Part shown: piece after piece, positions 3,001 through 54,057 of the stretch | How positions within the stretch are numbered: position 1 is the stretch's first letter | Layout: every line of letters begins with the position of its first letter | From: a virus | DNA length: 54,057 bases | Direction: 5' to 3' (one strand) | Virus record (IMG/VR): IMGVR_UViG_3300048588_000062 | Made by a program: the position numbers and the translations under genes | The notes under the pieces: model-generated | What the model was told of the DNA's origin: nothing | What the model saw: the letters and a program-made list of their open reading frames with translations, nothing else | The model's database searches: none

Positions 3001-5181
3001 ATCGTCAACGGCATCGGCTACGCCTTGAAGATCCCCTTCGCGTTCACCCGGTTCAACGCCACCACGTTCATGAACCTGACCGGTCTGTCCGGTATGGACC
3101 AGGCGGTGGCGATGATGCTGGGCGGCCGGCAGAAACCGGCGTTCATGCGCAAGGTCGGCGCGTTCTCCCGAGGCGAGAACTACAAGCCTGACACGGTGGA
3201 CACCATCAACATGGATGACGTCATTGAAACCCTGGACCTGTCGCGACTGTTCCTGCGCGGACTGGTGACCCAGACCGGTCTGATGGCGATGGGGTTCCTC
3301 GGCGCCAACCTGTTCAGCTTGGGAGGGGAGACGGACGAGGAACGGCGGCGGCGTAAGATCGCGCAGTTCCTGGATCTCCCCCAGGTCTACGATCCGCGGG
3401 AACTGCAGAACGACTTCCGTCAGGCCGACGCGATCTTCGTGGACAACATCCCGGTGCTCAACCGCATCTTCTACAACGAGGACACCGGGCGCTCAACGAT
3501 CGTGCCGCACTGGATGATCCAGCAGTTCACCTCCCCGATCATGGGCATGACACGGTTCTTCGAGACCGGTGACGTGCGCAACATCGCGTGGGGGTTCCTC
3601 GATGCGATCTCGGTGCTGCCCACTTCGGCGATCCGGTTGTGGCACGACGCCGACCTGACAGCCACCTTGCTGATGCAGGACGCGCAGGCGCTCGCCGGGG
3701 AGAACGCCGATGTCGCCAGGGATCGCGCGATGTGGACGGTCATCAACGTGGTCGGGTTGTACGAGCGGGCCCTGGTGGAGAACCAGTTCATCAACGCGCT
3801 GCGCAATGCCGGCGACCCGCTCGACCGCAACCCGTACGCGGTTCCCGACACCACCAAGTTGGGGCAGGTCATCAAGATCGACGGTGAGCCGGTCAGCACC
3901 GATGCGCTCAAGGCTTACGTCTCCGATCGCAACGGCCAGCCGCAGGCCGGTGTCGGATACGACACCCGCACCGGGTGGAACGCGGCGCTCCACCAGTACG
4001 CCGAGAACAACCTGATGGCCGCTCTGGGGCTGTCGCTGCTCTCCGGTCAGCCCAACAGCGACAGCACCTTCTTCCGGGAGAACATGGTTCCCCGTGGGCG
4101 CGAAGTCCCGGTCGAGCGGACTGTCCGCAAAGATGCGGAGGCCATTCTGCTCGCCCGGTGGAAGGGTGCCGGCGGTATGCCCTTCATGACCAAAGAGGAG
4201 ATCATCCGGGTCATCAAGGCGCGGGAGGAGGGGGCCGGCCGCTGGTGGAAGCAGGACCAGGTCGAGGCCGAGGCCGACGCGGTGTGGAAGGCGATGAAGA
4301 ACGACAACGCCACGCCGACCTTCATCGACAAGAACTCCCGCGAGATCCTGAACGACCCTGGTGCCACCGGCATCATCAAGTCGTTGATGGCCGGAGTCGT
4401 GGACTTCAGTGACCCGGCGTTGCAGGGCATCTACATCACCCAGGAGATGCGCGACCGGATCGGTCAGCAGTGGCTGGAAGAGCTGGTGCAGGAAGGTGTC
4501 GACTACGGGTTGTCGTACGAGTCGGCGCAGTACCGGGCACGACGGTTCTGGTACGGCGACCCCACTCGACCGGAGACTCCGGGGCTGCGGGAGTTGCTGT
4601 ACTCCAAGCAGATCCCCGACAGGCCGACGGCGAACTACACCCAGCTCAACGTGCGGTACACGATCGGCCCGGACGGAAAGCCGTGGGCCACACCGTACGC
4701 CCGTAACTCGTTCCTCGGGACGATCCTTCCGGTCCCCACCGGCATCAAGCCGGCGGCACCGGGGATGCGCCTGGACGAGCGTGGCAACTCGGTGGACGAG
4801 GTGCGCGGCATCAACACCGGCCTGGCCGCGCTGAAACCCAACCTGGTCGAGAGCCAGGTCGAGGCCAATGACAAGCCGTTGGAGCGGGCGCTGGCGAAAC
4901 GGTACACACCGTCGCAGGCCGAACGCGGCAACTCCTATGGCGGGTTCCGCCGAGGCTACTACCGCAGCGGCGGCTGGGGTGGCGGTGGCGGCTGGGGTGG
5001 CTACAGCAGTAGCGGCGGTGGCGGTGCGTACTTCACCCGCACGAACCCCTACCCGCGCAGGTACGGCCCGAACCCCAACGGGATTCCGGCGATCAACTCC
5101 AACACGCCGTACGTGCGGCGTGCCAGCATTCGGCGAGAACGGTTCTCGTCTGAACGAGGAAGGCTGAAGCAATGGCAGTAG
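1..5181 (+). CDS. Giant virion-type protein, C-terminal part. It continues 44568..54057 through the contig junction; the full ORF is 14,544 nt / 4,847 aa.
   Basis: The frame is open from base 1 (TCC ACC GCG ATG ...). Bases 1-127 equal 53931-54057, and base 1 and base 53931 are both first codon positions of the frame opened by ATG 44568. Stop TAG is at 5179-5181. GC3 is uniformly high. A Gly/Tyr/Arg-rich tail lies at 4936-5033. Confidence 0.85.
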   Translation, partial: STAMAGDLYMTVDSENRVLINRIGFSMPDETQRTELLTAWAEPAGGNAVIDLRIAFGPSTPENLQTVPPPFFIDSQEYTRDGLTVQGTYNLFRNMKITYEGQGGKTTTSPVQDGLRVSHALSDNGVGVSSMVSTNTSGDKSVVKGLVTNFADLFMMTGVDFRHLMVDYFYGPSKNGPLTNRPEDDFEAKWTTVQVFLDRWSKLESDMTATQVAKMLDFQNETVAALQQSNEIGAALYTTDWLPRIAQQGSTVTPQDRVAHILLMTLLIPGITPNMVMSNPGLLSVKDPKDKTLQIRRLPPVMTQAFNDVSMPEMRQMLIDWANESMSTHVDSNGDTYRSAWFDSTFRFNVVMEQVDPNGDIQQMVRRGYAQLETLVASDENPVTLAFAHKNSRSMSMHNARVAAAQGGSVVIESKPLTKDNTPIPTVIDEVYGDNTVIRFDEDQTVLWDLVTRIMPDTGPVSPAKYMTPMEGVHYKESVKEQIVYQQPVDKDGWDGTAVVEAIKFLKYLNMDSRRDLIEVDYLVRQWYGAPGPREDQKSDWIEQITEKDYLEAVTAMMTNVEKKMHPLHNGMVPLEHSAFWTKLYKAQQGARKPWAPLRKNGRRKRIAAYTLDEWTTTLLGQVFDSYNEFQAIYRTALDGFWRTYQGITPTFAETLVSLDKSLSLKLLDPDTNRQYLSIDPSVRALMHDPPIYESMKLNWRTLSGHDPVVDRDAMDGVTESSWRHYDEKRKAWIRKNGVTKQQKTSMIDYARQGATYQESVKTTNSFFRNVYHVSIVNRLFNPALWTSAMFEVFFYNQLEKVTDVVAGTDTGWRGKMMAAASETPLGKLMGLTPRYTVADYDPLERIIKRLGSSVEWAGEVFGEITFSTMVEPGAHIDEEGQLVYGASGRFGRLLERMATGTARTMNDPRLGMRQTSAARRYIGAALEYLEMTNNLIPLETLATLIEQDPLWLQKNFPETGPGPHRMGLNAVAHIRSTKNSALAKGIMSPIDTLTNAENVIVNGIGYALKIPFAFTRFNATTFMNLTGLSGMDQAVAMMLGGRQKPAFMRKVGAFSRGENYKPDTVDTINMDDVIETLDLSRLFLRGLVTQTGLMAMGFLGANLFSLGGETDEERRRRKIAQFLDLPQVYDPRELQNDFRQADAIFVDNIPVLNRIFYNEDTGRSTIVPHWMIQQFTSPIMGMTRFFETGDVRNIAWGFLDAISVLPTSAIRLWHDADLTATLLMQDAQALAGENADVARDRAMWTVINVVGLYERALVENQFINALRNAGDPLDRNPYAVPDTTKLGQVIKIDGEPVSTDALKAYVSDRNGQPQAGVGYDTRTGWNAALHQYAENNLMAALGLSLLSGQPNSDSTFFRENMVPRGREVPVERTVRKDAEAILLARWKGAGGMPFMTKEEIIRVIKAREEGAGRWWKQDQVEAEADAVWKAMKNDNATPTFIDKNSREILNDPGATGIIKSLMAGVVDFSDPALQGIYITQEMRDRIGQQWLEELVQEGVDYGLSYESAQYRARRFWYGDPTRPETPGLRELLYSKQIPDRPTANYTQLNVRYTIGPDGKPWATPYARNSFLGTILPVPTGIKPAAPGMRLDERGNSVDEVRGINTGLAALKPNLVESQVEANDKPLERALAKRYTPSQAERGNSYGGFRRGYYRSGGWGGGGGWGGYSSSGGGGAYFTRTNPYPRRYGPNPNGIPAINSNTPYVRRASIRRERFSSERGRLKQWQ

Positions 5182-7157
5182 ACGTGGATTACGCTCCGGT
5201 CGCCTCATTCGAGGACTGGTACGAGGAGTATCGGATTGATCCCCGCAACGGATGTCTCGATGTGCGAGGCATCGGCCCGAAGGGCCAGCGGCTCCATCAG
5301 ATGTTCCAGCGATACAAGTCGGAGATGGACGCCCGTGTATCCACGTACGACAAGTTGGAGAAGCTGGCCGACGGTGCGGTGATCAGTCCGAAACCGGATC
5401 TGCCCAACATCTCCTCGGGGGAGACGGCCGGGCTGATCCGGCGGATCGCGCGCAACCTGGTGCAGAACACCCCGAACGTGGAGGTGCTGTCCCGGTTCGA
5501 CGACGATTCGATCCAGGGGATCTTCGCCCGGCACATTCTCACCACCAAGGTGATCGGCTCCGACGAGTACAGCAACGACATGCAGCAGAACCTGTTCGCG
5601 TCGGTGAAGTCGGCACTGACCCTCGGGTTCGACACGGTGATCCCGGTGCTGTTGCAGGACGCCGCGGGCGGCTGGTACATGAAGTACGACGCCATCCACT
5701 ACCGGGACGTGTTCCCCGACCCGGGTGCCAAGGATGTGCGCCAGGCGCAGAACGTGTTCGTGCGCAGGTATCTGACCAAGGCCGAGGTCCACGCCATGAT
5801 TCAGGACACCCCGGTCGGTTGGGATGTCAACGCGCTGCGGTCGCTGTTGGTCAGCGCACCGTACGGCCGCTCCCGCGAGTCGGTGGATTACCAGTCCAAG
5901 AAGTTCGGGATCATCCCCGAGGGCTACGAGATCATCACCTGGTACTCGTCGTCCGGCCAGCCGTTCCTCACGTTCTCCCCACACACGAAGCACCTGCTGC
6001 GCATCGAGCGGAACAAGCACCCGCTGAAGTTGCACCCGGTTCACTTCCTGGTGTTGGAGAAGGACAGCCAGCAGCCGCTGGGCAAGTCACAGGTGGAGCT
6101 GCTGATCGGCCGGCAGGACTTTCAGGATCTGATGCTCAACGGTGCGATGAAGCTGTGGTACCGCAACATCAACCCGAGCATCCTGGGCTACGGCGCGGTC
6201 AACGCGATCCCGAACCTCAGCCCCGGCAAGTACACCCAGATCTCCAACCCGAACGCGAAGATCGAAGCGTTCGAGGTGAACACCCAGACACTGATGCAGT
6301 ACGGCCAGATCAGCCAGCAGAACCTGGGCAGCATGGTGAACCTGATCGGGTCCGCCGACCAGCAGATGGCGACCCAGGCCGGTAACGGGATGTCGGCCAC
6401 ACCACAGGGTGTCGAGGCCCAGCAGGCGATGGTGGACATCACCACGAACAACTACCAGAAGGCGATCGAGTCGTTCTTCAGTCACTACTGCTCGTACGCG
6501 CTGACGGTGTACTTCGCCGAGTTGCGGGCTGTGAAGAAGGTGGAGCCGACAGCCGACGCCCGAGTGAAACTGCTCAGGGCCGGGCTGCCGACCGAGACAC
6601 TGAACGAGGACGGCACGCTCGACATCGACTTCAACGATCTCTCCGTCGAATACTGGGTACGTGCGGTGCCCGGCTCCCTGGTGGAGATGGAGGACGAGAA
6701 GCAGCTGCGCATCCTCAACCAACTGTTCGTCCCGCTGTCACAGGCGATGCCGGCGCTGGCCGCTGCACAGGACCAACAGATGCTGACACAGGCCGCCAAG
6801 GCGATGCAGTACATCATCGCCAAGCAGATAGAACTGTCCGGCTCCGCGTCCGCGAAGGACATCGGGTTGATGTGGAAAGGCGATGTCGAGGCTGTCGACG
6901 AACGTGACCGCCGTATCGAGATGGTCGAGAGTGAACTCACATCCTTGGAGACAGGGATGGGTGATCTGGTGTTGATGCAGGGTAACGCGCTGAGCCAACT
7001 GCAGGATCAGATGAGCATGATGCGGGAGGCACAGCAACTCCTGATGGAGAAGCTAGGTGTGTTGGAGACACCAACTGGTGTCGAGGAGCCGCAAGATCAG
7101 ATGGGGTCTTCGACACCATTGATGAACCCCTCTAGCGTTATCACTGCCAGCGCCTGA
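5172..7157 (+). CDS. Portal protein (putative, positional)
   Basis: 661-aa ORF whose ATG overlaps the giant-ORF stop (ATGGCAGTAG). It sits directly upstream of the capsid-like gene. Size and position fit a podovirus portal, but I recognise no diagnostic motif. Confidence 0.5.
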   Translation: MAVDVDYAPVASFEDWYEEYRIDPRNGCLDVRGIGPKGQRLHQMFQRYKSEMDARVSTYDKLEKLADGAVISPKPDLPNISSGETAGLIRRIARNLVQNTPNVEVLSRFDDDSIQGIFARHILTTKVIGSDEYSNDMQQNLFASVKSALTLGFDTVIPVLLQDAAGGWYMKYDAIHYRDVFPDPGAKDVRQAQNVFVRRYLTKAEVHAMIQDTPVGWDVNALRSLLVSAPYGRSRESVDYQSKKFGIIPEGYEIITWYSSSGQPFLTFSPHTKHLLRIERNKHPLKLHPVHFLVLEKDSQQPLGKSQVELLIGRQDFQDLMLNGAMKLWYRNINPSILGYGAVNAIPNLSPGKYTQISNPNAKIEAFEVNTQTLMQYGQISQQNLGSMVNLIGSADQQMATQAGNGMSATPQGVEAQQAMVDITTNNYQKAIESFFSHYCSYALTVYFAELRAVKKVEPTADARVKLLRAGLPTETLNEDGTLDIDFNDLSVEYWVRAVPGSLVEMEDEKQLRILNQLFVPLSQAMPALAAAQDQQMLTQAAKAMQYIIAKQIELSGSASAKDIGLMWKGDVEAVDERDRRIEMVESELTSLETGMGDLVLMQGNALSQLQDQMSMMREAQQLLMEKLGVLETPTGVEEPQDQMGSSTPLMNPSSVITASA

Positions 7158-7191
7158 TCTTCAGGCCTAACCACACAAAGGAGTACGCGAC

Positions 7192-8556
7192 ATGGTCGCA
7201 CCAGTCCAGAAGGACAGCCTGACCGACTATCAGGTCGCTCTGGCCACATACCTTCGCATCACCAGTCCCGTGGCCGGGATGTTCACTGGGTCGGAGATCA
7301 AGCCGAACCCGAACGCCCGCAGCATCCGCGTCCCCGACATCCGTGTCGATGACTACATCGTGGACGCCGACATCAGCCGTATCGGGGCCGACCACTACTC
7401 CGGCAGTGAGTACACCGCCGAGTGGAAGAACGGCATCCCGCCGATCGAGTGGCGCACCTACTCGATGAGCCGGCACCGTTCCTTCGGCTTCACCGTGTTC
7501 GACGAGCAGCTGCGCTACAGCCCGATCAAGAACATCGTGCAGGAGTACACCGGCCGCAAGATGCAGACCACCGTGCTGCGCGACCACGACAAATACTGTC
7601 TGCTCGCAGCGGTCCAGGGCCACATGACCGGCAAGCTGGTTCCCCGCCTGTCCACTGAGACACCGGCACCGCAGACCACGGGTGCCGAGCGCATCGCCTG
7701 CACCGGCAACGCCGCGGACTACCGCTGGATCGCCGAACCCGGTGAGGACAGCGACAACCAGATCCAGCCGTCGTTCGCCACCATCAAGGGCATGTACCTC
7801 GATGACACCGATCCGCTGTCGACGCTGGATGCCCTGTCGCTGCTGTTCAGCGACAACTGGTTCGACAGCAACTTCGGCAACAACGAGCGGTTCCTGCTCA
7901 TCACCAGCGCCCTCGAGCTCGTGTTCATCAACGCGCTCATCGACAAGGGTGCCGGAACCGAGTCGGCGTTCAAGCTGTACAAGGACGGCGACATCTCAGG
8001 GGCGAATGCTTCCGGCTACCTCGGCACCCTGAAGGGGTCGTGGAAGCTGGTCAAGATCCACCCCGAGTTCCTGCCGAAGGTGTTCACCGACACCAACCTC
8101 GTTGTCGATCCTGTCGCCTCGACGGCCACCGCCGGCCGTACGCTGCGTCAGGTCGTGGCGCTGGCCGCGTACAAGAACGCGATCCAGACCTACGAGCACT
8201 TCAGCGAGCGTCGGGAGCAGGACGGCGGCACCCGGTTCAAGGGAACCGAGTACGTGCAGGACTTCTCCTACGACTGCTGGGTGATCGACCAGCTCTCCGA
8301 AGGAGTGGTCCCGTTGTTCCTGCCCGCCTCCACCACCAACCTGCAGGTCGTCGGTGACTCGTTCACCTTCGTGGCGAACAAGGTGGCCGCGGCCCGTGCG
8401 CAGATGGGTGTCTCCCCCGAGACCTACCCGCTGTCCGGACCGAACACGCTCAAGTCCACGCCGGAGTGGTTCCACTCGCCGTACAACGCGACGAGCAACC
8501 TCGACACCGGCCTGCCGGTTCAGTCGGCCGGCGACGTCGCACACAACCAGCGATAG
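7192..8556 (+). CDS. Major capsid protein (putative, positional)
   Basis: 454-aa ORF with a strong SD (AAAGGAG) upstream of the ATG. It follows the portal-like gene and is followed, after a small ORF, by a strong stem-loop at 8755-8787. Confidence 0.5.
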   Translation: MVAPVQKDSLTDYQVALATYLRITSPVAGMFTGSEIKPNPNARSIRVPDIRVDDYIVDADISRIGADHYSGSEYTAEWKNGIPPIEWRTYSMSRHRSFGFTVFDEQLRYSPIKNIVQEYTGRKMQTTVLRDHDKYCLLAAVQGHMTGKLVPRLSTETPAPQTTGAERIACTGNAADYRWIAEPGEDSDNQIQPSFATIKGMYLDDTDPLSTLDALSLLFSDNWFDSNFGNNERFLLITSALELVFINALIDKGAGTESAFKLYKDGDISGANASGYLGTLKGSWKLVKIHPEFLPKVFTDTNLVVDPVASTATAGRTLRQVVALAAYKNAIQTYEHFSERREQDGGTRFKGTEYVQDFSYDCWVIDQLSEGVVPLFLPASTTNLQVVGDSFTFVANKVAAARAQMGVSPETYPLSGPNTLKSTPEWFHSPYNATSNLDTGLPVQSAGDVAHNQR

Positions 8557-29373: not shown

Positions 29374-29461
29374 GACGAAACTGTAGCACCCAAAAAAGAG
29401 AGGGATCGTGCGCACAGTTTCGTCACAGGCTCAGTAAAGAAGAGTCGAGCCTCGCACCCAC

Positions 29462-29482: not shown

Positions 29483-29510
29483 ACGGGTACAAGGCTCGAA
29501 TCCTCTGCGG

Positions 29511-43332: not shown

Positions 43333-43360
43333 AAATGTCCCTCTGACCAGGGGATTTGTT

Positions 43361-43411
43361 GTAGTCACCTGAAGTAGATTGCAGGTGACTACAGGTGACT
43401 ACACTGACTAC
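43361..43411. promoter_or_regulatory. Third heptamer cluster R2b: a 10-bp inverted repeat plus 3x TGACTAC
   Basis: GTAGTCACCT (43361-43370), a 12-nt spacer, then AGGTGACTAC (43383-43392). TGACTAC is at 43386, 43396 and 43405. This is a direct (same-strand) copy of 22738-22765. Confidence 0.65.
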
Positions 43412-44093: not shown

Positions 44094-44120
44094 CAGTCCT
44101 CCTTGGTTGAATTGACATTG

Positions 44121-44156
44121 CAGATAGAGCAGATAGAGCAGGAAGAGCAGATAGAG
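44121..44156. repeat. 9-bp tandem repeat CAGATAGAG x4 (the third copy is CAGGAAGAG)
   Basis: Direct reading. It lies 28-63 nt upstream of the 44093 start codon. Confidence 0.85.
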
Positions 44157-44227: not shown

Positions 44228-44266
44228 AAATACATATACATATATTCATATATACATATATGTATG
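44228..44266. other. AT-rich alternating purine-pyrimidine tract
   Basis: aaatacatatacatatattcatatatacatatatgtatg lies in an otherwise high-GC genome, in the middle of the divergent region between 44093 (-) and 44568 (+). It contains the palindrome TACATATATGTA. Confidence 0.8.
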
Positions 44267-44460: not shown

Positions 44461-44567
44461 ACGTGTCTGTTGTGGTAGGTGCATGATCGGGTTGGAACAC
44501 CCTAGACTCGCGGGTAGACCCGGTGCCATGACGATGGTGCCGCAACGAGTGAAAGTGCGGTTCCTCA

Positions 44568-47500
44568 ATGGCTGACTTCTCGAAGGGCCCATCGGACTAC
44601 TGGAAGAACCAGGCGAGGAATCCGGCTGCTCCGATGGGGTTGCGGCAGGCGTCGGCGTCCACCGCGCAGGATCTTCAGGAGTGGGACGGTCAGGGTCCGA
44701 AGCCGTGGACCCCGGAGTCGATGCTGGATGTGGCGTCGTCGTGGTACACGGGGGCGAACTCCCAGGGCATGGAGAACGGGTGGAACACCGAGTTCATGCA
44801 GAAGGCGTTCGACCAGATGAACCGGTACTACGCGCTCGCCGCCGAGCAGCAGGACCAGTCGGTGTGGTTCACCCAGTTCGATCCGACGAAGAACCCGACC
44901 GCCACGGGTGTGGTGATGTGGGACGACCCGCAGCGGGGGCTGAACTTTGGTGACGTGTTCGTCGACGGGGTGAAGCAGGAGGGGCAGAACCTGTACCAGG
45001 CGTTCGACAAGCGCACCGCCGACGTGATGATGGCGGAGTTCATGTTGGACGGCCCGGAGAAGACCCGGCTGTTCGAGCAGATCCCGAGGGGCAACCCGGA
45101 CGCGGTGGGCAACCGGGTGCAGGAGTTGCGCACGCAGAACTCGGAGACCGCGGCCACGGCGATCACCAAGGGGGAGTTCAAGGCGCAGACCGACGCCAGG
45201 GAGCTGGAGTACCAGCAGGGCTGGCAGGATCCCGCGCTGATCGCGGGTGGCGCGGCCGGCGGTGCGTTGATGGGTGCCGGGATCGGTTCGTTCGGTGGCC
45301 CGGTCGGAACCCTGATCGGTGGCGCGGTGGGCGGCATCGTCGGCGGTGTGTCGTCGTGGTTGAACCAGGACGAGCTGCGTGACCTGGCCGCCCGGTCGGC
45401 GGTGGTGTCGCAGATGGCGAACGAGAGGTATCAGGGCACGGATCAGGTCGGCGCACTCGGTGTCACGATCAAGGAGTTCTCCGGGTTGGGGATGCGTCTG
45501 ATCTCCCCGATGTCGAACACGGTGCGCGGGATCGAGGATGCCCGGCGCGGTGACGTCGGTGACATGACCGCCGAGTGGTACGAGTTCACACCCGACGGTG
45601 ACCGGCAGCGGTCCAACTGGGTGACCGGGCTGGACCTGGCGGCCAGTGTCGCCGACTCGGCGTTGCAGTTCTCCGGCGGTGCCGGGCGTGCGGCGTACAT
45701 GGGGGTGATGGGTGCCACCACGGCCGGTGGGGTCGCAGGCATGATCCCCGGTGAGGGGTTCAACTACTCGACCGGTGAGTTCGATGCGTACGAGAATGCC
45801 GGCGAGTGGATGGCCGCGGCCGGCAGTGTGGCGATCGACGCGGTGCAGATGGGTGGCGCCGGGGCGTTCGTGCGGGCCGCACGCAACTCCCGGGTCGCCA
45901 ACGGGATGCCGAGCCGGGCCTCGGACGAACTGCTGGGTGTGGTGCCCCCGAACGCCCGTGGCCAGTTGCGGCAGTGGGCCGGGGACAAGGCCGCCGCCAT
46001 CACGAGCGCCACCGGGGATGCGGTGGAGAAGGTGGCGGGCAAACGGACGCGGGAGTTCCTGTCCAGCCGGTTCACCGACGAGGGTGAGGTGATCGCGGGC
46101 CGTAGGTACATCCGGGACGCCGACGGCAACATGATGAAGCCGCGGCTGGCGTTGGAGATGCTGGCCCCCAGCGAGATGCTGCGCGCGATCCCGGTCAGCT
46201 ACCGGGCGCGGACCCGCGCCGCCGATCCGATGAACGTCACCCCGGATGACATGTACAACGCGGCACTCGAGCTCACCCGCTACAACGGGCAGTTCCGCAA
46301 CGCGGTGATCATGGGGTACGCGGAAGGCACCGAGGAGTTGGTGCAGGGGATCCTGGATCCTCTGGCGTACAGCGAGAACATCAACCCCGGTCAGGTGTTG
46401 GAGTCGGCGATGTACGGGTTTGCCGGCGGGTTCGGCATGGGCATGGGGTCGATGAGCCGCACGGCGAACTACCAGCAGCAGGTGGACGCCAGGGCCCGTG
46501 TGAACTGGGCGATCCGCAGCGGCAAGTCGATGCCGAACGATGAGCAGTGGGCGCAGATCAAGGAGGGGATGCGCCCGGTGGACATCGAGAAGCTGGCGAT
46601 GCCGACTCCTGAGGAGGACGAGCAGCTGGCCGGGCTGCGCGAGGTGGCGACCGAGGCGATGCGCCAGTCCGGGTTCACCTCCCCGATTGCGATGGCGGTG
46701 TTCGATTCGCTGCGGGAGGGTGCCTGGGAGAAGTTCCTGGCCGGGAAGAACACGGTCGGCGGGCAGTCCCGCACCCTGTTCGGGTCCAGCGACAACAAGA
46801 CGATCAACGTGGGTGGCGCGGTCGAGGAGTTGGAGATGGCGCCGAACTCCGCGGTGATGTCGTTCGACACCACGATCGACACGCTGGTGCGCAACGCCGA
46901 GGGGCTGCGCACGAAGATGACTGCGGCGATGCAGGGCAAGGCGAAGTACGAGGCGATCCAGCAGAACGCCGCCTCGACCCAGGAGCAGAAGGACGAGGCG
47001 GCCCGGATGGTCGCCAAGTACGACGCGCAGATCCTCGACCTGGGGACCGGGGTGCAGGTCGCCGACATGATGGTGGGCACCCGGGACAACCCGGCGATCC
47101 TGCTGCAGATGTACCAGGACTTCCTCGACGACCCGGATGCGCAGTCGAAGATCCAGCGGATCAAGGACTTCAACGCCAAGGTCAAGTCGATGTACGAGGG
47201 CCAGTGGGAGAACAACGGCCAGCTGCTCCCCGGTGAGATGCAGGACGGCGCGAAGAAACTGGTCGAGACCCTGATGACCCGCCATCCGCTGATCGACACC
47301 GGTTCCTGGGGTGTGTTCGTCCCGATGGTGTCGGTGGAGTTGTCACGGGCCAACGCCCACGGTGCGGTGTTCATGCACCAGGCGACGTTGAAGGCGATGG
47401 GTGCCGACCACGACGGGGACAACGCGGTGCAGGCGCAGGAGCAGTATTTCACCCCGGAGCAGTTGCGGAACCTGCGCCGGGGCGTGCAGTACCTGCAGCA

Positions 47501-50500
47501 GGAGAACGAGCAGTTCACCTACGACCCGAAGAACCCGTCAGCGCCGAAGACGAAGTGGAAGGTGGTGGCCGACCCGCCGGACGCGGAGGCCACGTTCATC
47601 CGGAACTTCTCCGACCCGATGCTGACGACCAAGCAGAAGGACATCGTCACCCAGGGCCTGGTCCGGCTGATGAGTCGGCTGCGTGACCGGTACGCGACCA
47701 ACGGCCCGTTCGACTACTCCACGATGGACAACCTGTTGTCGGACTTCGAGGCGAACGTCCGGGCCGGTAACGTGAACGCTCGGGTGCGTCTGGTCGAGGC
47801 GATGTTCGAGGCGAAGGCCCAGGAGCTGTTCGCCATGTCGGACACCACGAACATCCCGGAGTTCTTGCAGATCTGGTCGATGGTGAACCTCGAGTGGGAT
47901 GCGATCCAGCAGAACTTCGCCTACGACTTCTTCCTCAACCGGGAGCAGATGACGACCACCCCGGATGTTCCGGCCCGGCCGGAGGACGACGCCGCGTTGG
48001 AGACCAGGGCCCGCCGGCAGGCGGTGGTGCATGGGCACGCGCTGGCGATGCTGGGCACCGCGGACCCGGTGCGCGCGGCACAGTACCTGCACTACTCGGC
48101 ACTGCTGAAGTCGGCGGTCAGCCTGTCGCACCTCGACCCGGAGACACTGTCCCGCTCGGATCAGCGTCTCGACGAGTTCACCCGTGCGTACGCCCAGATC
48201 GGAACCGGGGACTCCCGTTCCGACATGGACAAGTTCGTCGGGGTGAACGCGATCGAGAGTCGTGTCATCGCAATGCTGGAAGGGATGCTGGACTCCGCCG
48301 ACCTCGGGAACATGTACCCGGATCAGTCGGCTGATCTGAAGGATCTGCTGCGCACCGGGCGCAAGACCGAACTGATGCTGATGCTGGCGAATGTCCGGGT
48401 GCCCGACATGATCGTCGACGAGTCGAACGACATCACGTTCGGCAACCGGGACGTGACGCTGCTGCAGTTGCTGCTGCGCAAGTCGTTGGAGATCGAGAAG
48501 AACCTGAACCGGGACATGGATCAGGACAAGGATCTGATCCGCAAGATCCGCAAGTTGGAGCGGTTGACCCGCCCGGAGACGGATGGGCACAGCAGCACGG
48601 CGGCGCTGGCCACGATGGAGGTGTTCGGCAACACCCCGCTGGCCACGCTGGTCGGGGATGCGTCGATGTACGTCGGCCCGCAGATGACGTTGGCCCAGTA
48701 CCAGAAGAAACTGCTGGCGATGAGTTCGACGCGGCGGCGCGAGGAGCTGGCGCTGCTCAAGCGGGCGCCGCACTACTTCCTGCACAAGACCGTCGGCGAC
48801 CCGCCGTGGTACTTGGAGCAGTTGTACGCGCAGAACGTGGCCGGCCAGACCCGAGGTGCCGAGGTCAACGCCTTCACCATGCTGGTGGATGCGTTGCAGA
48901 CCGCGACCAGTGTGGAGAACGAGCAGCGTCGGCACCAGTCGAATCGCGACATCGAGGCGTTCGAGTCCGGCCTGTTGAAGTTGAGCGAGGTGTTGGACGC
49001 CTGGAACGCCACGCACGGTGCGGACATCCCCGGATCGGCCGACGGCAGTTCGGATCGGGTGGAGATCCTGCGGCACATGCTGCGGTACGAGCCGCGGGCC
49101 GCGCAGATCATCGCCGAGGTGATCCCGCAGGAGTCACGCCTGGGTGTGATCGAGGAGCGTGACGGCCAGGTCACGATGCAGAACTGGGTGGAGCAGGTGC
49201 TCACCGAGAAGGACGAGAAGAAGGCGGCCGTCCAGTTCTACGTGTACTCGAAGCTGGCCGAGTGGAACGTGCTACAGGGGACGCTGGATGTGACGGCGCT
49301 GCACGAGGAGGTGCGCCGCATCCAGGCCGAGGAGCGCGACGACAAGGGCAACCGGTTGTCCAGGGAGCAGGCCTACGCCCGCATCGACCTGGAACAGTTC
49401 CGGTCCCGTGTCCGGCTGGGCCAGGTGAAGTCCCGGTTCCTGCAGACCTTGTGGCACCTGAACATGATCCCCGACGGTGGCCGGGAGTTGCACCGGTTCC
49501 TGGCCACGATCCTCGACGCCGATGATCTGTCGTCGATGTTCGACAGGATCAACGAGGAGCCGATGTGGTTGCAGGGCCGGGCCAAGCTGTACGCCTTCAA
49601 CGACAGTGTCGAGGCGTTCGAGTTGAACCCGAACGACGTGTGGACCACCGATGCCACCGGTACCGAGTACCGGGAGGCGTTGGGTGAGTTCTCGGAGAGC
49701 ATGAGTTCGCTGGCCGACCGCACCGCCGAGCAGGCCGCGAACGCCGAGCAGAACCTGCGCGCCGTCAAGGCGATGCAGGAGGTGCTGCGCAAGCTCCTCA
49801 ACGGGGAGCCGCTGGGCGACGGCTTCGATCAGCAGGGCGCTCTATTGCTGCAGCAGTTGGAGAAGGCGATCCAGGTGGCCCGGGAGTTCCCGGATGCGAT
49901 CGGCCGGCGGGCCAGGGACCAGGCGATGGCCGCGTTCCAGACCATGTACATCCGGATGCACGACAAGGGCAAGGCCGATCCGCGTATCGCCCCGCTGGGG
50001 GCCGCTGCGATGACCGCGGACACCATCGGGTTCGGCGACCCGTTGCAGTTGGAGATGGGTGCGATCACCAGTTTCAGCTGGTCGGACGTTTCCTCGAACC
50101 TGTCGGCTCTGGCCAAGGGCCCGGTGCGCATCATGCTGGACAACGGCAAGGTGCTGGACATCGACATGTCCACCTTGGAGGGCGCGGTCGAGATGCTGGC
50201 CGACCCGTTGACGCAGCCGTTTGCGATGGCGGTGCTGTTCCCCACGGTGAGGGATGTGAACTCCCAGAACACTGTGTCCACGTACCAGAGCACGATGGCG
50301 CGGTCCAAGCCGGACCCGAACTCCCCGAAGGGGGAGGGCAACCTGGCTCAGATGTTGGCGGAGGTGAACTTCGCCAACCTGTTCAACCCGCCGAACCAGG
50401 AGTCGAGGGTCGATCAGGCGTACCGCTACATCGGGCATGTCGAGGCGTACATCCGTCGGGCGGCGTTGGACACGGCCACCACCGCACCGGACACGGACAT

Positions 50501-53500
50501 CGAACTCGAGGAGCTGGAGTTCGGGTACTATCCGATCCAGAACATGCTCAACTCGTTCCTCGTGGCGTACCAGACGACGGCCGGCCGCGGCCGGACCGAC
50601 GAGCAGAACGAGAAGATCCGCGACGAGCTGGTGGTCGCGGTGGCCGACATGCTGAAGATGTTGAGCACGAAGTCGGACTTCGCCCTGGACACGATCAAGC
50701 AGGAACTGGTGGCCGTATTGCAGGCCAGGTTCTGGCAGGACGACACGATGGTCCAGGTCGTGCTGGACCGTGAAGATCCGCTCAGTGATGCGGTGGCCGA
50801 CTACATGATGAAGGCCATCGAAGGGGTGTTCATCCGTGAGAAGAACGAGGCCACCGCACGGTTCCAGGCCGCACTGAACCAGGGTGTTCCGCAGGCGACC
50901 GCCGTGGCGCAGTACCAGCAGGAACTGGCCGACATCACGACCCGTGAGGACGAGTTCAACTCGTCGGGCTCGTTGCAGACGATGCCGTACCTGGCACGGG
51001 ATTTCAGCACCGTGGGCCAGATGTTCGCCATGACGCACGATCCTGCCGACGCGGTGCGCGACATGCAGGCCAAGGTGCTGCTCGTGTCATTCCTCGGCAA
51101 GCAGGATCGGATCAACAAACTCCAAGGGGTGAAGGCCGCCTTCACCATCGAGGACCATGCTGGTGCGGAGACCGATGAGTCGTTCGCCGCGCTGATCGAC
51201 AAGTTCCGCGAGACCGTGTACGACAAGGACTTCGACATCGCGGACATGGCGAACTCCGACCCGTTGCAGCCGAACGAGTGGAATCAGCTGCGGTTGTGGG
51301 CCACGCAGCAGTTCATCTCGGAACGGGTCGTCGCCTCCTCGGCGGACATGAGCATGGCGGCGATCATCCTCGGCAAGAACGAGGATGAGATCCGCCGGCT
51401 GTACGACACGTCGTGGAGTTATCTGGTCGACACCGCGTTCGACAAGCGAACACTGGCCGCTGCCCGCAGGCTCGCGGAACTGGCGCAGCACCGGGACTCG
51501 ATGGATTCGGCCCGGGTGCGGGACACGATCCTCAACCGGCTGTTCCCGGATCGGCTGCTCGGCACCTGGAACGACCGGGTTCCGATCGAGACGCTGAAGG
51601 CGAAGAAGGTTCTGGACGGCGCGGCCGTCAAGGAGTCCGTGGCCGCCGCCGGTATCGCCCCGAAGGAGATGGATGCGTGGATCGCCGGGGAGCAGACCAC
51701 GTTCCTGAAGCCGACCGCCGAACACTTCACGGAGGCGTCGTTGGTCGTGGCGGACGGTTCCGACATCCAGCAGGTGATGGACGTCCTCAACGATGCGATG
51801 CTCGGGTTGAAGACCCACAACCACTTCGTGCGGGCTGTCGAGCTGATCCCCACCGACACCGCGCTGCCGCCGGAGAACCTGTTCGGGATCGTCACCGAGG
51901 TCGACGACACCAACGACGAGACGGAGAACAGCGGGCTGCAGCTGTTCAAATTGGAGCAGTTGCTCGACCACATGATGCGCCGGGTGGAACAGGGCGAGGA
52001 TTCCTCGCAGACCGCCCCGAGTCTGGTTCAAGGGTTCACTCTGCGCATCGAGTACGTCGATGTGGACAAGCAGCCGGACGGTAGGGACTGGGCGAACAAC
52101 CGCTTCTTCGAGGGCCGGGGCCGCAACGCCACGGGCCGTAACGACCTCGGCCCGATCACCGCGCTGTACTTCGGCACCGGAGGCCTGTCGAAACTGTGGC
52201 AGCAGTCCCCGCTGGACTCGCTGACCAAGAAGGGCCAGGCGTTCCGGGCGTTCCTGCAGACCGCACTGGATCATGTGCGCAACTCGATGGAGAACAAGAC
52301 CACGGTCACCGAGGTGATGCAGGAGAAGACGCTGCACCTGATGGGCCGGCGCTTCGGTGGCGTGATGTTGCAGTGGGACGACATGCCGGCGATCTACAAG
52401 TACGTGAAGTCCCGGCATGTCATGGTCGGCCGCAACCGCAACACCGGCAAGAAGGAGGTGTGGCGGGTCGAGAAGTACATGGAGATGGAGGCCCGTGCCG
52501 CCACCGACCCCAACTTCGTGTTCGAGTTGGAAGCCCTTGACGGCAGCGGCGGCCCCGCGGAACTGGTGGCCCTGTCGCACAAGGTGGCGCAGACGTTGAA
52601 GGGCCGCCCCGGTGTCGGTGGTGTGGCGCAGGATACGCAGTATCCGTACACGAACGTCTCGGACGCCGACCCGTTCCCGTCGTACGACATGGGCCGGTTG
52701 GAGCAGCTGGGCCTCGCCGAGATCGGGGAGAAGGCGAAGGCGAAGGAGTCCCCGGCCGGACGGCACGGGTTGCTGACCAAGGCGTACGGGAAGGGCGGGC
52801 CGACCCGCAAGGGCGTGCGCTCCCTGTACCAGGCACGGATCGACAGGCTGATCACCGAGGAGCGCCTGCCCCAGCTCGAGGTGCGCAGCAACTACCGCAG
52901 TCAGGACCAGGGCAAGCTGGACATCGCGGAGACGCACAAGTGGGGGATGAAGGTCGTCGGCGAGATGCTGCGGCTGGAGGCTCTGGGTGAACGGCTGAAC
53001 AAGTTGGGCATCCCGAACATGCTGATGAAGGATTTGATGCAGCTCGAATCCTCGGAGCGGCTGTACCACCGGCTGTTCAAAGACCTCGACCCCAACTCGA
53101 TGGTGTGGCAGCACAAGCAGGACGAGACCAGCGGTGACCCGACACGCGGCCTGATCAGCCCGGTGGAGGTGCGGGAAGGATTCCCGAACACGATCCAGCC
53201 GGTGATCGGCGACATCGTGGTGCTGGACCTGACCTCGTTCATGAACAACACCGGGCAGAACGAGCAGGAGGCCATCGACCAGGCGAAGCAGGTCATCGAC
53301 GTCTACGTACGCAAGGGGGTGTCCATCGTCCTCGGTGGCACGACCAGCGTGAACGGTGTGCGCCAGGCGCTCGTCGAGCATCTGACGTTCGGCACGATGG
53401 GCTACAAGCGCAAGGGCATGTCCGGGCACATCTTCGAGCCGATCAGTGACGACTGGGATGTGGACCTCACCGAGCAGGCACTGGACTCCACACTGTCCGA

Positions 53501-54057
53501 GGTGACAGCGATGTCCGCGGCGAACACCGCTGTCACACTGGTGACCGACGAGTTCTCCGCGTTGAGCGAGGGGACGCGGCTGATCTGGATGGATCAGCCC
53601 AGCCCGTGGCAGCAGTTCGCCACCGTGCTGATCCCGACACAGTTCCTGCTGGGCGCCTCCGATGACCATGTGTTGTCGTTCGGGCTGCCGCAGCATGGCA
53701 CCGGTCAGGCCGACCAGTTCGGCAAGGTGGCCAAGAAGATCATCGACTACGCCGCCACGCAGGAAGGGTTCGACGATCTGCTGGACATGATGGGTCGCTA
53801 CGATCCGATGATCTCGCTGTACCAGCAAACGGCCGACGGCTATGTCGCGCCGGGCGTCCGGCCTCCTGAGGAGGCGCTGAAACTGTTCATCGCCGCCTTG
53901 AAGCAGGGCGGGCAGATGATCGACCCGGGTTCCACCGCGATGGCCGGTGACCTGTACATGACGGTGGACAGTGAGAACCGGGTGCTCATCAACCGCATCG
54001 GGTTCTCCATGCCGGACGAGACCCAGCGCACGGAACTGCTGACCGCCTGGGCGGAGC
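44568..54057 (+). CDS. Giant virion-type protein, N-terminal part. It is open to the window end and carries a beta-prime-like DPBB catalytic motif (putative virion RNA polymerase).
   Basis: ATG 44568 is the first start after the in-frame TGA at 44550. I translated 44568-54057 by hand and met no stop codon. The ORF is absent from the track because no stop occurs before the window end. The long minus-strand track ORFs here (44565..47285, 47538..49076, 49842..51038, 51087..53828) are antisense shadows. The DHDGD motif is at 47406-47420 and a glycine-zipper hydrophobic segment at 45231-45362. Confidence 0.85.
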   Translation, partial: MADFSKGPSDYWKNQARNPAAPMGLRQASASTAQDLQEWDGQGPKPWTPESMLDVASSWYTGANSQGMENGWNTEFMQKAFDQMNRYYALAAEQQDQSVWFTQFDPTKNPTATGVVMWDDPQRGLNFGDVFVDGVKQEGQNLYQAFDKRTADVMMAEFMLDGPEKTRLFEQIPRGNPDAVGNRVQELRTQNSETAATAITKGEFKAQTDARELEYQQGWQDPALIAGGAAGGALMGAGIGSFGGPVGTLIGGAVGGIVGGVSSWLNQDELRDLAARSAVVSQMANERYQGTDQVGALGVTIKEFSGLGMRLISPMSNTVRGIEDARRGDVGDMTAEWYEFTPDGDRQRSNWVTGLDLAASVADSALQFSGGAGRAAYMGVMGATTAGGVAGMIPGEGFNYSTGEFDAYENAGEWMAAAGSVAIDAVQMGGAGAFVRAARNSRVANGMPSRASDELLGVVPPNARGQLRQWAGDKAAAITSATGDAVEKVAGKRTREFLSSRFTDEGEVIAGRRYIRDADGNMMKPRLALEMLAPSEMLRAIPVSYRARTRAADPMNVTPDDMYNAALELTRYNGQFRNAVIMGYAEGTEELVQGILDPLAYSENINPGQVLESAMYGFAGGFGMGMGSMSRTANYQQQVDARARVNWAIRSGKSMPNDEQWAQIKEGMRPVDIEKLAMPTPEEDEQLAGLREVATEAMRQSGFTSPIAMAVFDSLREGAWEKFLAGKNTVGGQSRTLFGSSDNKTINVGGAVEELEMAPNSAVMSFDTTIDTLVRNAEGLRTKMTAAMQGKAKYEAIQQNAASTQEQKDEAARMVAKYDAQILDLGTGVQVADMMVGTRDNPAILLQMYQDFLDDPDAQSKIQRIKDFNAKVKSMYEGQWENNGQLLPGEMQDGAKKLVETLMTRHPLIDTGSWGVFVPMVSVELSRANAHGAVFMHQATLKAMGADHDGDNAVQAQEQYFTPEQLRNLRRGVQYLQQENEQFTYDPKNPSAPKTKWKVVADPPDAEATFIRNFSDPMLTTKQKDIVTQGLVRLMSRLRDRYATNGPFDYSTMDNLLSDFEANVRAGNVNARVRLVEAMFEAKAQELFAMSDTTNIPEFLQIWSMVNLEWDAIQQNFAYDFFLNREQMTTTPDVPARPEDDAALETRARRQAVVHGHALAMLGTADPVRAAQYLHYSALLKSAVSLSHLDPETLSRSDQRLDEFTRAYAQIGTGDSRSDMDKFVGVNAIESRVIAMLEGMLDSADLGNMYPDQSADLKDLLRTGRKTELMLMLANVRVPDMIVDESNDITFGNRDVTLLQLLLRKSLEIEKNLNRDMDQDKDLIRKIRKLERLTRPETDGHSSTAALATMEVFGNTPLATLVGDASMYVGPQMTLAQYQKKLLAMSSTRRREELALLKRAPHYFLHKTVGDPPWYLEQLYAQNVAGQTRGAEVNAFTMLVDALQTATSVENEQRRHQSNRDIEAFESGLLKLSEVLDAWNATHGADIPGSADGSSDRVEILRHMLRYEPRAAQIIAEVIPQESRLGVIEERDGQVTMQNWVEQVLTEKDEKKAAVQFYVYSKLAEWNVLQGTLDVTALHEEVRRIQAEERDDKGNRLSREQAYARIDLEQFRSRVRLGQVKSRFLQTLWHLNMIPDGGRELHRFLATILDADDLSSMFDRINEEPMWLQGRAKLYAFNDSVEAFELNPNDVWTTDATGTEYREALGEFSESMSSLADRTAEQAANAEQNLRAVKAMQEVLRKLLNGEPLGDGFDQQGALLLQQLEKAIQVAREFPDAIGRRARDQAMAAFQTMYIRMHDKGKADPRIAPLGAAAMTADTIGFGDPLQLEMGAITSFSWSDVSSNLSALAKGPVRIMLDNGKVLDIDMSTLEGAVEMLADPLTQPFAMAVLFPTVRDVNSQNTVSTYQSTMARSKPDPNSPKGEGNLAQMLAEVNFANLFNPPNQESRVDQAYRYIGHVEAYIRRAALDTATTAPDTDIELEELEFGYYPIQNMLNSFLVAYQTTAGRGRTDEQNEKIRDELVVAVADMLKMLSTKSDFALDTIKQELVAVLQARFWQDDTMVQVVLDREDPLSDAVADYMMKAIEGVFIREKNEATARFQAALNQGVPQATAVAQYQQELADITTREDEFNSSGSLQTMPYLARDFSTVGQMFAMTHDPADAVRDMQAKVLLVSFLGKQDRINKLQGVKAAFTIEDHAGAETDESFAALIDKFRETVYDKDFDIADMANSDPLQPNEWNQLRLWATQQFISERVVASSADMSMAAIILGKNEDEIRRLYDTSWSYLVDTAFDKRTLAAARRLAELAQHRDSMDSARVRDTILNRLFPDRLLGTWNDRVPIETLKAKKVLDGAAVKESVAAAGIAPKEMDAWIAGEQTTFLKPTAEHFTEASLVVADGSDIQQVMDVLNDAMLGLKTHNHFVRAVELIPTDTALPPENLFGIVTEVDDTNDETENSGLQLFKLEQLLDHMMRRVEQGEDSSQTAPSLVQGFTLRIEYVDVDKQPDGRDWANNRFFEGRGRNATGRNDLGPITALYFGTGGLSKLWQQSPLDSLTKKGQAFRAFLQTALDHVRNSMENKTTVTEVMQEKTLHLMGRRFGGVMLQWDDMPAIYKYVKSRHVMVGRNRNTGKKEVWRVEKYMEMEARAATDPNFVFELEALDGSGGPAELVALSHKVAQTLKGRPGVGGVAQDTQYPYTNVSDADPFPSYDMGRLEQLGLAEIGEKAKAKESPAGRHGLLTKAYGKGGPTRKGVRSLYQARIDRLITEERLPQLEVRSNYRSQDQGKLDIAETHKWGMKVVGEMLRLEALGERLNKLGIPNMLMKDLMQLESSERLYHRLFKDLDPNSMVWQHKQDETSGDPTRGLISPVEVREGFPNTIQPVIGDIVVLDLTSFMNNTGQNEQEAIDQAKQVIDVYVRKGVSIVLGGTTSVNGVRQALVEHLTFGTMGYKRKGMSGHIFEPISDDWDVDLTEQALDSTLSEVTAMSAANTAVTLVTDEFSALSEGTRLIWMDQPSPWQQFATVLIPTQFLLGASDDHVLSFGLPQHGTGQADQFGKVAKKIIDYAATQEGFDDLLDMMGRYDPMISLYQQTADGYVAPGVRPPEEALKLFIAALKQGGQMIDPGSTAMAGDLYMTVDSENRVLINRIGFSMPDETQRTELLTAWAE
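53931..54057. repeat. 127-bp exact duplicate of 1..127 (circular-contig overlap)
   Basis: Direct comparison shows tccaccgcgatggccggtgacctgtac...gcctgggcggagc identical at both ends. It lies inside coding sequence and keeps the reading frame. Confidence 0.95.

Follow-up and report, generated by a model that had tools for sequence, protein, structure and literature searches.

The giant gene in the 54,057-nt stretch of viral DNA analysed here (hereafter the window) appears to encode a virion-packaged ejection protein in which residues ~745-2700 form a diverged two-barrel (beta/beta-prime) RNA-polymerase (RNAP) module, a reading to which we assign a probability of roughly 0.7. We judge the giant proteins to form a new and strongly diverged family among the two-barrel RNA polymerases associated with virions, and the member encoded here probably starts viral gene expression from the virus particle.

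ORF analysis identified a + strand reading frame that stays open from an ATG at 44568 to the end of the window. The window ends overlap by 127 nt, which indicates a circular assembly of 53,930 bp, and since the phage genome is circular the giant ORF wraps around the window ends. When joined, it encodes 4,847 aa and ends at 5181, overlapping the start of the portal gene by 10 nt (Table 1). On the 54,057-bp JGI contig the second-part piece had been called P0101, a 1,723-aa 'hypothetical protein'. The original prediction that the giant gene leads the structural block is borne out, as it is the first gene of a rightward block in which portal and capsid genes (5172..8556, +) follow immediately, and its placement upstream of the portal and capsid genes is retained in distant family members. 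Other RNAP genes were sought in the genome and, as anticipated, none was recognisable, nor was a second DxDxD protein. A 1,192-aa ORF was weighed as a candidate for a second polymerase and dropped, being a tail nozzle homologue. The divergent intergenic region contains lineage-specific repeated motifs (TGTAGTCACCTG in this genome).

Table 1. Features of the giant gene and its neighbours, with positions in the window.
Feature	Position	Strand	Evidence or remark
Giant gene, first part, aa 1-3163	44568..54057	+	Final 127 nt duplicate window 1-127
Giant gene, second part, aa 3122-4847 plus stop	1..5181	+	ORF/overlap analysis
Glycine-zipper, membrane-like segment, aa 223-262	45234..45353	+	Weak similarity to SlyB and to families of glycine-zipper proteins
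Candidate partner barrel 2, aa 575-670	46290..46577	+	EGxEE..Q..LxP.S...YG.A.G.GM
Modelled beta-prime-like module, aa 745-1944	46800..50399	+	AF2 mean pLDDT 79
Second half of beta-prime-like double-psi beta-barrel (DPBB-A), aa 904-954	47277..47429	+	Translation, profile match, hhalign
R905-H-P907, counterpart of beta-prime N-R-A-P	47280..47288	+	R905 and P907 invariant in 76/76
D947-H-D949-G950-D951, putative Mg2+-binding Asp triad	47406..47420	+	Invariant in 76/76
Second modelled block, compact helical and beta unit, aa 1730-2720	49755..52727	+	AF2
Candidate partner barrel 1, aa 3195-3290	220..507	+	K3217...G3224-x-K3226...K3261
Conserved basic C-terminal tail ...RRERFSSERGRLKQWQ	5116..5178	+	Nearly invariant across family
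Portal gene	5172-7157	+	64% identity to Arthrobacter phage MissAmericana portal
Major capsid gene	7192-8556	+	82% identity to Arthrobacter phage MissAmericana MCP

The motif on which the assignment turns was confirmed by exact translation of its coding segment, which yields TRHPLIDTGSWGVFVPMVSVELSRANAHGAVFMHQATLKAMGADHDGDNAV and reads TRHP...ADHDGD, and the E. coli beta-prime sequence with which it had been compared was likewise correct, with NADFDGD at residue 458. As D.DGD occurs in 12% of shuffles of the giant protein and R.P-x(30-50)-D.DGD in 0.76%, a match in a single sequence is by itself only suggestive. Conservation across homologues settles that the resemblance is real. A full HMMER scan recovered 100 cluster representatives (50% identity), nearly all of 4,400-4,900 aa, and motif counts were made on 76 full-length members of the family. 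All 76, which share 20-40% identity, carry R-x-P...D-x-DGD at the same position, and the middle residue is F (27 members), H (25) or Y (21) in 73/76. In the family alignment N869, R905, P907, D947, D949, G950, D951 and G972 show little or no variation, and 7 of the 13 invariant residues of aa 745-1944 fall within aa 869-972.

Three independent tests, two with profiles and one with a predicted structure, link this segment to the catalytic barrel of beta-prime. When the family profile was compared with 177,635 PDB sequences, the best relevant match was phiKZ gp55 (7ogp_A, E=8.4e-4), the beta-prime-like subunit of the phiKZ non-virion RNAP, with an alignment that spans exactly R-x-P to DxDGD; for AR9 beta-prime, aligned at this site too, E is about 1, and the gp55 match recurs with another family alignment (E=0.027). 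In sliding hhalign comparisons with an RpoC profile, only windows containing aa 905-951 stood out (score 38, P=1.1e-4, against 21 for the next best), making the motif segment unique among 47 windows. Searches with the family profile did return RNAP matches, and the proposal of a beta-prime-type DPBB metal-binding motif, with the giant protein as a candidate virion RNA polymerase, is supported by profile, profile-profile and structure-prediction tests.

Searches with single sequences were negative. For the giant protein, Pfam returned no RNAP match and no palm or T7-like RNA_pol, NCBIfam no RNAP match, PHROGs a glycine-zipper only, and phmmer against the PDB no match, while a Pfam scan of 10 diverse family members at E<=10 found no RNAP family. 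With the window segment as query, neither megablast nor tblastn retrieved anything from phages, a search of IMG/VR for related loci with the single protein found none, and a first homologue search with aa 701-1400 was empty where the exhaustive representative scan later gave 100. The right-hand palm motifs A, B, C and T/DxxGR (Pfam RNA_pol) were absent in the Pfam and PDB searches, and Jacobs-Sera et al. likewise report none (PMC7302621). A weak RAD23-like match at aa ~3740-3820 (E=0.008-0.02) was judged uninformative.

Structures were predicted from mixed alignments of full-length and naturally short family members. In the AF2 model of aa 745-1944, residues 745-1125 are predicted at pLDDT above 90, motif region included, and aa 904-954 adopt the predicted order strand-strand-short strand-helix-loop-strand, as in beta-prime. 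Most of the 50 matches listed by Foldseek against the PDB were beta-prime chains, from Thermus, E. coli, Mycobacterium, Vibrio and tobacco plastid, over alignments of 520-700 columns whose length suggests that the modelled fold shares more than the barrel with beta-prime. The best of these had a weak E-value of 0.016 (probability 0.89), none reached E<1e-3, and TM-scores were low, about 0.1-0.2; beta-prime dominates the list, but at weak E-values. QDE-1, gp66 and gp96 were absent from the top 50, in which cellular beta-prime came first. In BFVD, the matches that followed the family's own members were RNAP subunits of Solivirus, cowpox, mimivirus and pithovirus, that is, NCLDV and poxvirus RNAP largest subunits. 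Neither a bridge helix nor a trigger loop was assigned with confidence, by-eye resemblances being all that was seen. The model of aa 1730-2720 (pLDDT 77.7, pTM 0.74), which includes the invariant K1800-G1801, again had a beta-prime as its top, weak Foldseek match (E=0.12), and aa 2490-2640 showed a weak likeness to the beta C-terminus (hhalign P about 0.045).

The original prediction also called for a partner DPBB with conserved basic residues. Two segments rise above the shuffled background, the barrel itself is not established, and both remain candidates on sequence comparison. At the first, aa 3195-3290, the hhalign alignment pairs K3217, K3226 and K3261 with beta K1065, K1073 and R1106, and the targeted score of 15.4 was reached by 1/150 column shuffles. 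Of the 76 members, 26 have G[DN]K-x5-7-G-x-K here, compared with an expectation of 0.018 per protein, and many members read GDK-x6-G-x-K; K3217, G3224, K3226 and K3261 are invariant, and the 'GD' of GDK is lost in the window's own subclade. The second, aa 575-670, is rich in invariant residues, lies upstream of the DxDGD barrel by about 300 aa and is the best-scoring family window against a beta profile (score 25.8; targeted P=6.7e-4; reached by 0/150 shuffles), with 10/27 ungapped identities to E. coli beta by a hand count of residues. It is without conserved basic residues. Correction for about 47 windows leaves similarity to beta in sequence only marginal. No beta chains appeared in either Foldseek list for the two modelled blocks, and full-length family profiles found no beta subunit in the PDB.

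Three other resemblances to beta, noticed by eye, were set aside. 'HDKG...PLG' (aa 1798-1811), taken as beta 'HGNKG...NPLG', was not supported by hhalign and was modelled in a loop between helices; 'GD...(Y)RHG(F/N)K' (aa 3127-3147), taken as beta 'GDKMAGRHGNKG', loses its K in the window's subclade; and 'QQxPL...' (aa 2545-2549), taken as beta 'QQPLGGK', reached only P about 0.045-0.2. In distant members the aa 3127-3147 segment resembles beta strikingly, and aa 2545-2549 is the top hhalign match to a proteobacterial RpoB profile.

Which candidate is the partner decides the domain order, and the two would give opposite ones. With aa 575-670 as partner, the protein would fit the order DPBB-B, connector, DPBB-A (within about 500 residues) of the QDE-1/gp66/P23-45 clade, whereas aa 3195-3290 would give A-then-B, unlike QDE-1, gp66 and P23-45 gp96/gp64. 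A tentative extension of the latter, which we consider possible but rather doubtful, is that the family represents a third, independent single-chain two-barrel lineage, with the multisubunit beta-prime/beta enzymes, and not the QDE-1/crAss clade, as its ancestors or sister group. A beta-prime-like module of ~2,000 aa would then be followed about 2,270 residues on by a beta-like barrel (GDK-x6-G-x-K...S-K, aa 3217-3261), all in a single ejected protein of 0.5 MDa and in an order opposite to that of the single-chain two-barrel polymerases described so far.

The cultured relatives comprise Microbacterium cluster EK phages, Burro phages and an Arthrobacter phage, all of which carry the motif. We regard the giant genes of cluster EK, Burrovirus and MissAmericana as true homologues given their shared synteny, size, motif and C-terminal tail; the terminase, portal and capsid proteins of these phages are 60-82% identical to those of the window, whereas their giant proteins are only 19-22% identical. 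The relatives are podoviruses (PMC7302621), and a 2020 description of the gene, then of no known role, ranked it as the largest in actinobacteriophages; it occupies 13-14.5 kb or a quarter of the genome in Microbacterium cluster EK and Burro phages. In Burro virions a ~250-kDa protein was attributed to the homologue gp27, for which N-terminal transmembrane segments are also reported (PMC7302621); the evidence for virion association is a single SDS-PAGE band, from one relative with 22% identity. The gene is annotated in the relatives only as 'hypothetical' or 'tape measure', as it still is in 58/58 public phage records matching the Arete segment. We reject the 'tail tape measure protein' annotation, given the podovirus relatives, the position upstream of the portal gene and the lack of TMP-family matches.

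Comparison with known polymerases places the protein closest to beta-prime at the catalytic site. RpoC, phiKZ gp55 and AR9 beta-prime share an R-x-P strand followed by [NG][AG]-D-[FHY]-D-G-D on the double-psi barrel; gp55 is the best sequence-profile match, and the best fold matches are Thermus and E. coli beta-prime. The motif spacing differs from that of bacterial beta-prime by 7 residues only, yet similarity to beta-prime is undetectable at the sequence level outside about 50 residues, and a single 4.8-kaa chain without Pfam RNA_pol_Rpb1 domains stands in place of separate subunits. The crAss phi14:2 protein gp66 (PDB 6VR4) is likewise a large virion-packaged protein of a podovirus-like phage with an embedded two-barrel polymerase, found via DxDxD, mostly without recognisable homologues and encoded in the structural block. 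Unlike gp66 (2,180 aa, DFDID, order DPBB-B, connector, DPBB-A, closest to QDE-1), the giant protein has a canonical DxDGD and finds cellular beta-prime, not QDE-1 or gp66, as its top fold matches; the hosts are actinobacterial here and Bacteroidota for phi14:2. Gp96 of Thermus phage P23-45, discovered by scanning virion proteins for DxDxD, is an about 5,000-aa virion protein with DFDGD and a remainder unrelated to RNAPs. Its RNAP makes up the N-terminal 1,200 aa of the tape measure in a siphovirus, whereas the module here starts about 750 aa into the chain, and P23-45 encodes a second, non-virion RNAP, of which this podovirus shows none. Coliphage N4 gp50 (Schitoviridae) offers a functional analogy, being a giant (~3,500 aa) encapsidated and ejected podovirus polymerase flanked by N-terminal ejection and C-terminal encapsidation regions, but it is a T7-like single-subunit (right-hand) enzyme, the motifs of which the giant protein lacks. 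The original claim of novelty goes too far, since the embedding of a two-barrel RNAP in a giant virion protein is known from gp66 and P23-45, and the giant-gene family was described in 2020 without a function; what is new is a very divergent family.

If the preferred reading of a virion-packaged polymerase is right, D947, D949 and D951 would lie on the loop that follows the second psi-half in a double-psi barrel of the beta-prime kind and, with R905-x-P907 on the preceding strand, would coordinate the catalytic Mg2+. The basic residues that bind the incoming NTP and the 3' end of the RNA would come from a beta-like segment in another part of the chain; for this putative partner K3217/K3226/K3261 is the best functional candidate, with the aa 575-670 block as the alternative. 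We further infer RNA synthesis, DNA dependence, ejection and an early-gene role. The protein would be made late, alongside the structural genes, probably be cut by proteases before it is packaged beside the portal inside the capsid, and be ejected together with the DNA, whereupon it would transcribe the first phage genes with no need for the host polymerase.

It is improbable that the protein is instead a genuine two-barrel nucleotidyl transferase with a task other than early transcription, whether primer-synthesising, RNA-dependent or DNA-synthesising (PolD-like), that serves ejection or replication. The same fold does build QDE-1 RdRPs and archaeal PolD, and the intergenic lineage-specific repeats could be an origin as well as promoters; the motif, however, is RNAP-type (R-x-P...[NG][AG]-D-[FHY]-D-G-D) and not PolD-type, the best sequence and fold matches are beta-prime subunits of DNA-dependent RNAP, DNA polymerase I, a primase-polymerase and a helicase are already encoded in the genome, and known virion-packaged two-barrel enzymes are all transcriptases. 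We give equally little credence to a mainly structural ejection protein, 'tape-measure'-like or envelope-penetrating, in which the DPBB is an inactive relic scaffold. Relics lose catalytic residues, whereas 76/76 members keep all three Asp, the Gly and R-x-P in proteins that are otherwise ~20% identical, and podoviruses have no tail length to measure. The 'tape measure protein' or hypothetical label of the public records, the glycine-zipper N-terminal segment, the mostly unassignable 4.8 kaa and the unproven partner barrel are in keeping with a structural role, which is compatible with an enzymatic one, as in P23-45. That so long a protein contains a short motif of this kind merely by chance, as suggested by the 12% shuffle frequency of D.DGD and by single-sequence searches that yield no RNAP, is effectively refuted by invariance across 76 divergent homologues, by profile (E=8e-4, to an RNAP subunit) and hhalign (P=1e-4) matches exactly at the motif, and by Foldseek lists dominated by beta-prime.

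Collectively, the assignment gives a testable function to a giant gene of no known role whose protein is covered by no Pfam, PHROG or NCBIfam model. With it, a widespread lineage (at least 100 clusters at 50% identity) would join the short list of virion-packaged two-barrel polymerases and provide a very divergent enzyme for study of the minimal RNAP core. If the protein is an RNAP, host-independent, rifampicin-resistant early transcription is predicted in phages of Actinobacteria, and as cultured isolates and hosts exist in number, the function is testable now.

The reading frame that carries the motif is open from an ATG at position 44568 to the end of the window and, once a 127-nt duplicate is removed, continues in frame from position 1 to a stop at 5181, yielding a joined ORF of 4,847 aa. 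As the first and last 127 nt (1-127 and 53931-54057) are identical, the window is a circular assembly (53,930 bp, G+C 62.8%). Its arbitrary start splits the giant gene, and in the JGI/IMG source its C-terminal part (1,723 aa) is called on its own as a 'hypothetical protein'. A 906-aa ORF antisense to the giant gene, like the other long antisense ORFs throughout the window, is a by-product of high G+C rather than a gene.

The assembly is a phage genome whose genes lie in two divergent arms. On the rightward arm are portal, capsid, tail fibres, nozzle and terminase, and on the leftward arm DNA polymerase I, a primase-polymerase, helicases, an exonuclease and SSB. Among cultured phages it is closest to Arthrobacter phage MissAmericana, to Burro and Arete (Microbacterium Burrovirus phages) and to cluster EK (Akoni), all podoviruses of ~54 kb (PMC7302621). 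Terminase identity to Burrovirus and cluster EK is 60-70%. Capsid, terminase and portal are 82%, 73% and 64% identical to those of MissAmericana, whereas the giant protein is only 21% identical to its counterpart. Evolutionary rates of the giant gene and the portal-capsid block are thus extremely uneven.

The original prediction read aa 904-954 as the catalytic double-psi beta-barrel (DPBB) motif of a beta-prime-like RNA polymerase (RNAP). The residues it gave match the translation exactly, and the E. coli beta-prime sequence it quoted is correct. A single-sequence match of this kind is weak evidence alone, because D.DGD occurs in 12%, and R.P-x(30-50)-D.DGD in 0.76%, of shuffles of the giant protein. 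Family conservation carries more weight. A HMMER search run exhaustively with aa 601-1800 and clustered at 50% produced 100 representatives, nearly all of 4,400-4,900 aa and in some cases only about 20% identical overall to the window protein. Homologues bearing the R-x-P...D-x-D-G-D motif include the giants of MissAmericana, Arete, Burro and Akoni (19-22% identical). R-x-P, ~40 residues and D-x-D-G-D occur at the same place in 76/76 full-length members, in which the middle residue is F (27), H (25) or Y (21) and many read NADFDGD or GDFDGDK. Alignments of 41 and 76 sequences show N869, R905, P907, D947, D949, G950, D951 and G972 to be invariant or nearly so. Conservation of the giant protein is confined to scattered invariant residues and is densest in the C-terminal ~650 aa, not in the polymerase motif region. 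Another conserved element, an 'L-x-N-P-A-L-x-x-S-A-x-x-E' helix block, matched RAD23 weakly but recurrently in PDB profile searches (E=0.008-0.02).

When a 33-row family profile was compared with all PDB sequences, the best match was phiKZ non-virion RNAP gp55 (7ogp_A, E=8.4e-4), a homologue of the beta-prime N-terminus, in an alignment running from R-x-P to DxDGD; AR9 beta-prime aligned there too, at E about 1. A separate 10-row alignment again matched gp55 (E=0.027). Alignment diversity matters, since a 19-row alignment of close relatives reached just E=2.8. In a profile-profile test, 220-aa windows of the 76-member alignment (47 windows) were slid across an RpoC(1-470) profile built from 66 proteobacterial loci; both windows containing aa 905-951 scored 38 (P=1.1e-4) on the RpoC RAP...NADFDGD columns, and the next best scored 21.

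Structure prediction pointed the same way. The AlphaFold2 model of aa 745-1944 has a mean pLDDT of 79, with aa 745-1125 above 90, and its predicted order of a strand (901-906), a strand (914-921), a short strand, a helix (938-943), the DxDGD loop and a strand (952-955) corresponds to that of the second psi-half in the beta-prime barrel. Foldseek against the PDB returned no match below E=1e-3; beta-prime chains (Thermus, E. coli, Mycobacterium, Vibrio and tobacco plastid rpoC1) make up most of the 50 matches listed, over 520-700 aligned columns, but the best reaches only E=0.016 (probability 0.89). In BFVD the 'uncharacterized' Burro and Truong giants came first, followed by the largest RNAP subunits of Solivirus (probability 0.94), cowpox (0.80), mimivirus and pithovirus. 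For aa 1730-2720, a second model (pLDDT 78, pTM 0.74) again matched Thermus beta-prime best, weakly (E=0.12). The beta-prime reading is supported by the PDB profile and RpoC tests, and the AlphaFold2/Foldseek results are consistent with it: a beta-prime-like catalytic barrel is established at the level of homology, and a wider module similar to beta-prime is probable.

To our knowledge, all known enzymes of the two-barrel class need a second, beta-like barrel. Against a beta profile of 12 jumbo-phage beta-like subunits and 11 bacterial RpoB C-termini, two family segments rose above background. The first, aa 575-670, is the top-scoring window (25.8; targeted P=6.7e-4; reached by 0/150 column shuffles), and after correction for about 47 windows it alone is borderline significant. 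This invariant-rich block (E586, E589, E590, Q593, G617, G621, G623) aligns with beta 'D-I-V-L-N-P-x-G-V-x-S-R-M-N-x-G-Q-L-x-E' and lies ~300 aa upstream of the DxDGD barrel, a position consistent with the B-connector-A order seen in QDE-1, gp66 and P23-45 gp96; it contains no conserved basic residue. The second, aa 3195-3290, has a lower score of 15.4 (P=0.021), which 1/150 shuffles reached, and hhalign places its invariant K3217, G3224, K3226 and K3261 exactly on beta K1065 (GDK), HG, K1073 (NKG) and R1106 (SRMN). G[DN]K-x5-7-G-x-K is found at this site in 26/76 members, with only 2 other occurrences across all 76 proteins (0.018 expected per protein by chance), and once in E. coli beta (GDKMAGRHGNK). 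On functional grounds we lean towards this lysine-bearing segment as the candidate partner.

Features of the window discussed in the text
Feature	Window position	Strand	Residues of giant protein
R-x-P...ADHDGD motif	47277-47429	+	904-954
Candidate partner barrel (beta-profile match)	46290-46577	+	575-670
Candidate partner barrel (beta-profile match, lysines)	220-507	+	3195-3290
Conserved helix block	~1855-2097	+	~3740-3820
Antisense ORF, 906 aa (rejected)	44565-47285	−	
Portal-capsid block	5172-8556		
TGTAGTCACCTG clusters (tandem and inverted copies, intergenic)	43221-43403 and 22666-22758		
46-bp tandem repeat	41586-41694		
9-bp tandem repeat and AT-rich stretch	44120-44155 and 44228-44265		
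Tail nozzle ORF	18975-22553		
tRNA-Asn call	26888-26976	−	
Inverted repeat	29438-29506		

As originally described, the giant gene opens the structural block; portal comes next. This synteny is shared by two metagenomic members, the nearest (P0002) and one very distant (P0090), in which small leftward genes are followed by a non-coding gap, the giant gene and a portal gene overlapping its stop. The original statement that no other RNAP gene is recognisable also stands: no other polymerase-like or DxDxD protein was found in the genome. Jacobs-Sera et al. detected a ~250-kDa protein in Burro virions, above any other predicted product, concluded that the giant homologue gp27 is associated with the virion, probably in processed form, and reported no similarity of gp27 to N4 vRNAP (PMC7302621). 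The window protein has a glycine-zipper, membrane-like segment at its N-terminus and a basic tail, nearly invariant in the family, at its C-terminus. In N4 gp50 the polymerase is flanked by ejection and encapsidation regions, a layout that these termini may recall.

The 12-mer TGTAGTCACCTG occurs 14 times (<=2 mismatches) versus 4 expected, with clusters in the divergent region ahead of the giant gene, which is richer in AT, and in the gap that follows the nozzle gene. A related contig (L005) has 5 copies of the same core (GGTGACTACA) upstream of its giant gene, and in the corresponding position Arete/Burro and Akoni carry other repeated 10-mers; such repeats are candidate phage-polymerase promoters, operators or origin iterons. 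A perfect 46-bp tandem repeat, GGGCTGATTCAGCGAGGGTGTCAATGGGTCATGTCCCTGCATCGAG (~2.4 copies), lies among the small leftward genes. About 300-450 nt before the start of the giant gene come a 9-bp repeat, GCAGATAGA (3-4 copies), and a low-complexity, AT-rich stretch of the TATACATATA type. Elsewhere, the 1,192-aa nozzle homologue (50% identical to MissAmericana gp45) contains a ~390-aa insertion (residues ~215 to ~603) with no family match. An 89-nt tRNA-Asn called by ARAGORN opposite the terminase coding region is probably a false positive, and an inverted repeat (34-nt arms, 82% complementary, 1-nt loop) falls in the region corresponding to the physical genome ends of cultured relatives.

A two-barrel RNAP within a 4.8-kaa virion protein of an actinobacterial podovirus had been proposed as new; giant virion proteins with such an enzyme inside are known from crAss-like phi14:2 (gp66) and from the P23-45 tape-measure fusion, so this general kind of protein is not. 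The family itself is unannotated: its gene is called hypothetical or tape measure in 58/58 phage records matching the Arete segment, UniProt and BFVD label it uncharacterized, it has no match among Pfam, PHROG and NCBIfam models, and we found no link to an RNA polymerase in literature outside subscription journals. Compared with the known cases, the window giant differs in host phylum and size, has a canonical DxDGD, has cellular-type beta-prime rather than QDE-1 as nearest neighbours, and possibly has an unusual barrel order. We predict, with a probability of about 0.7, that the giant protein is a functional virion RNA polymerase.
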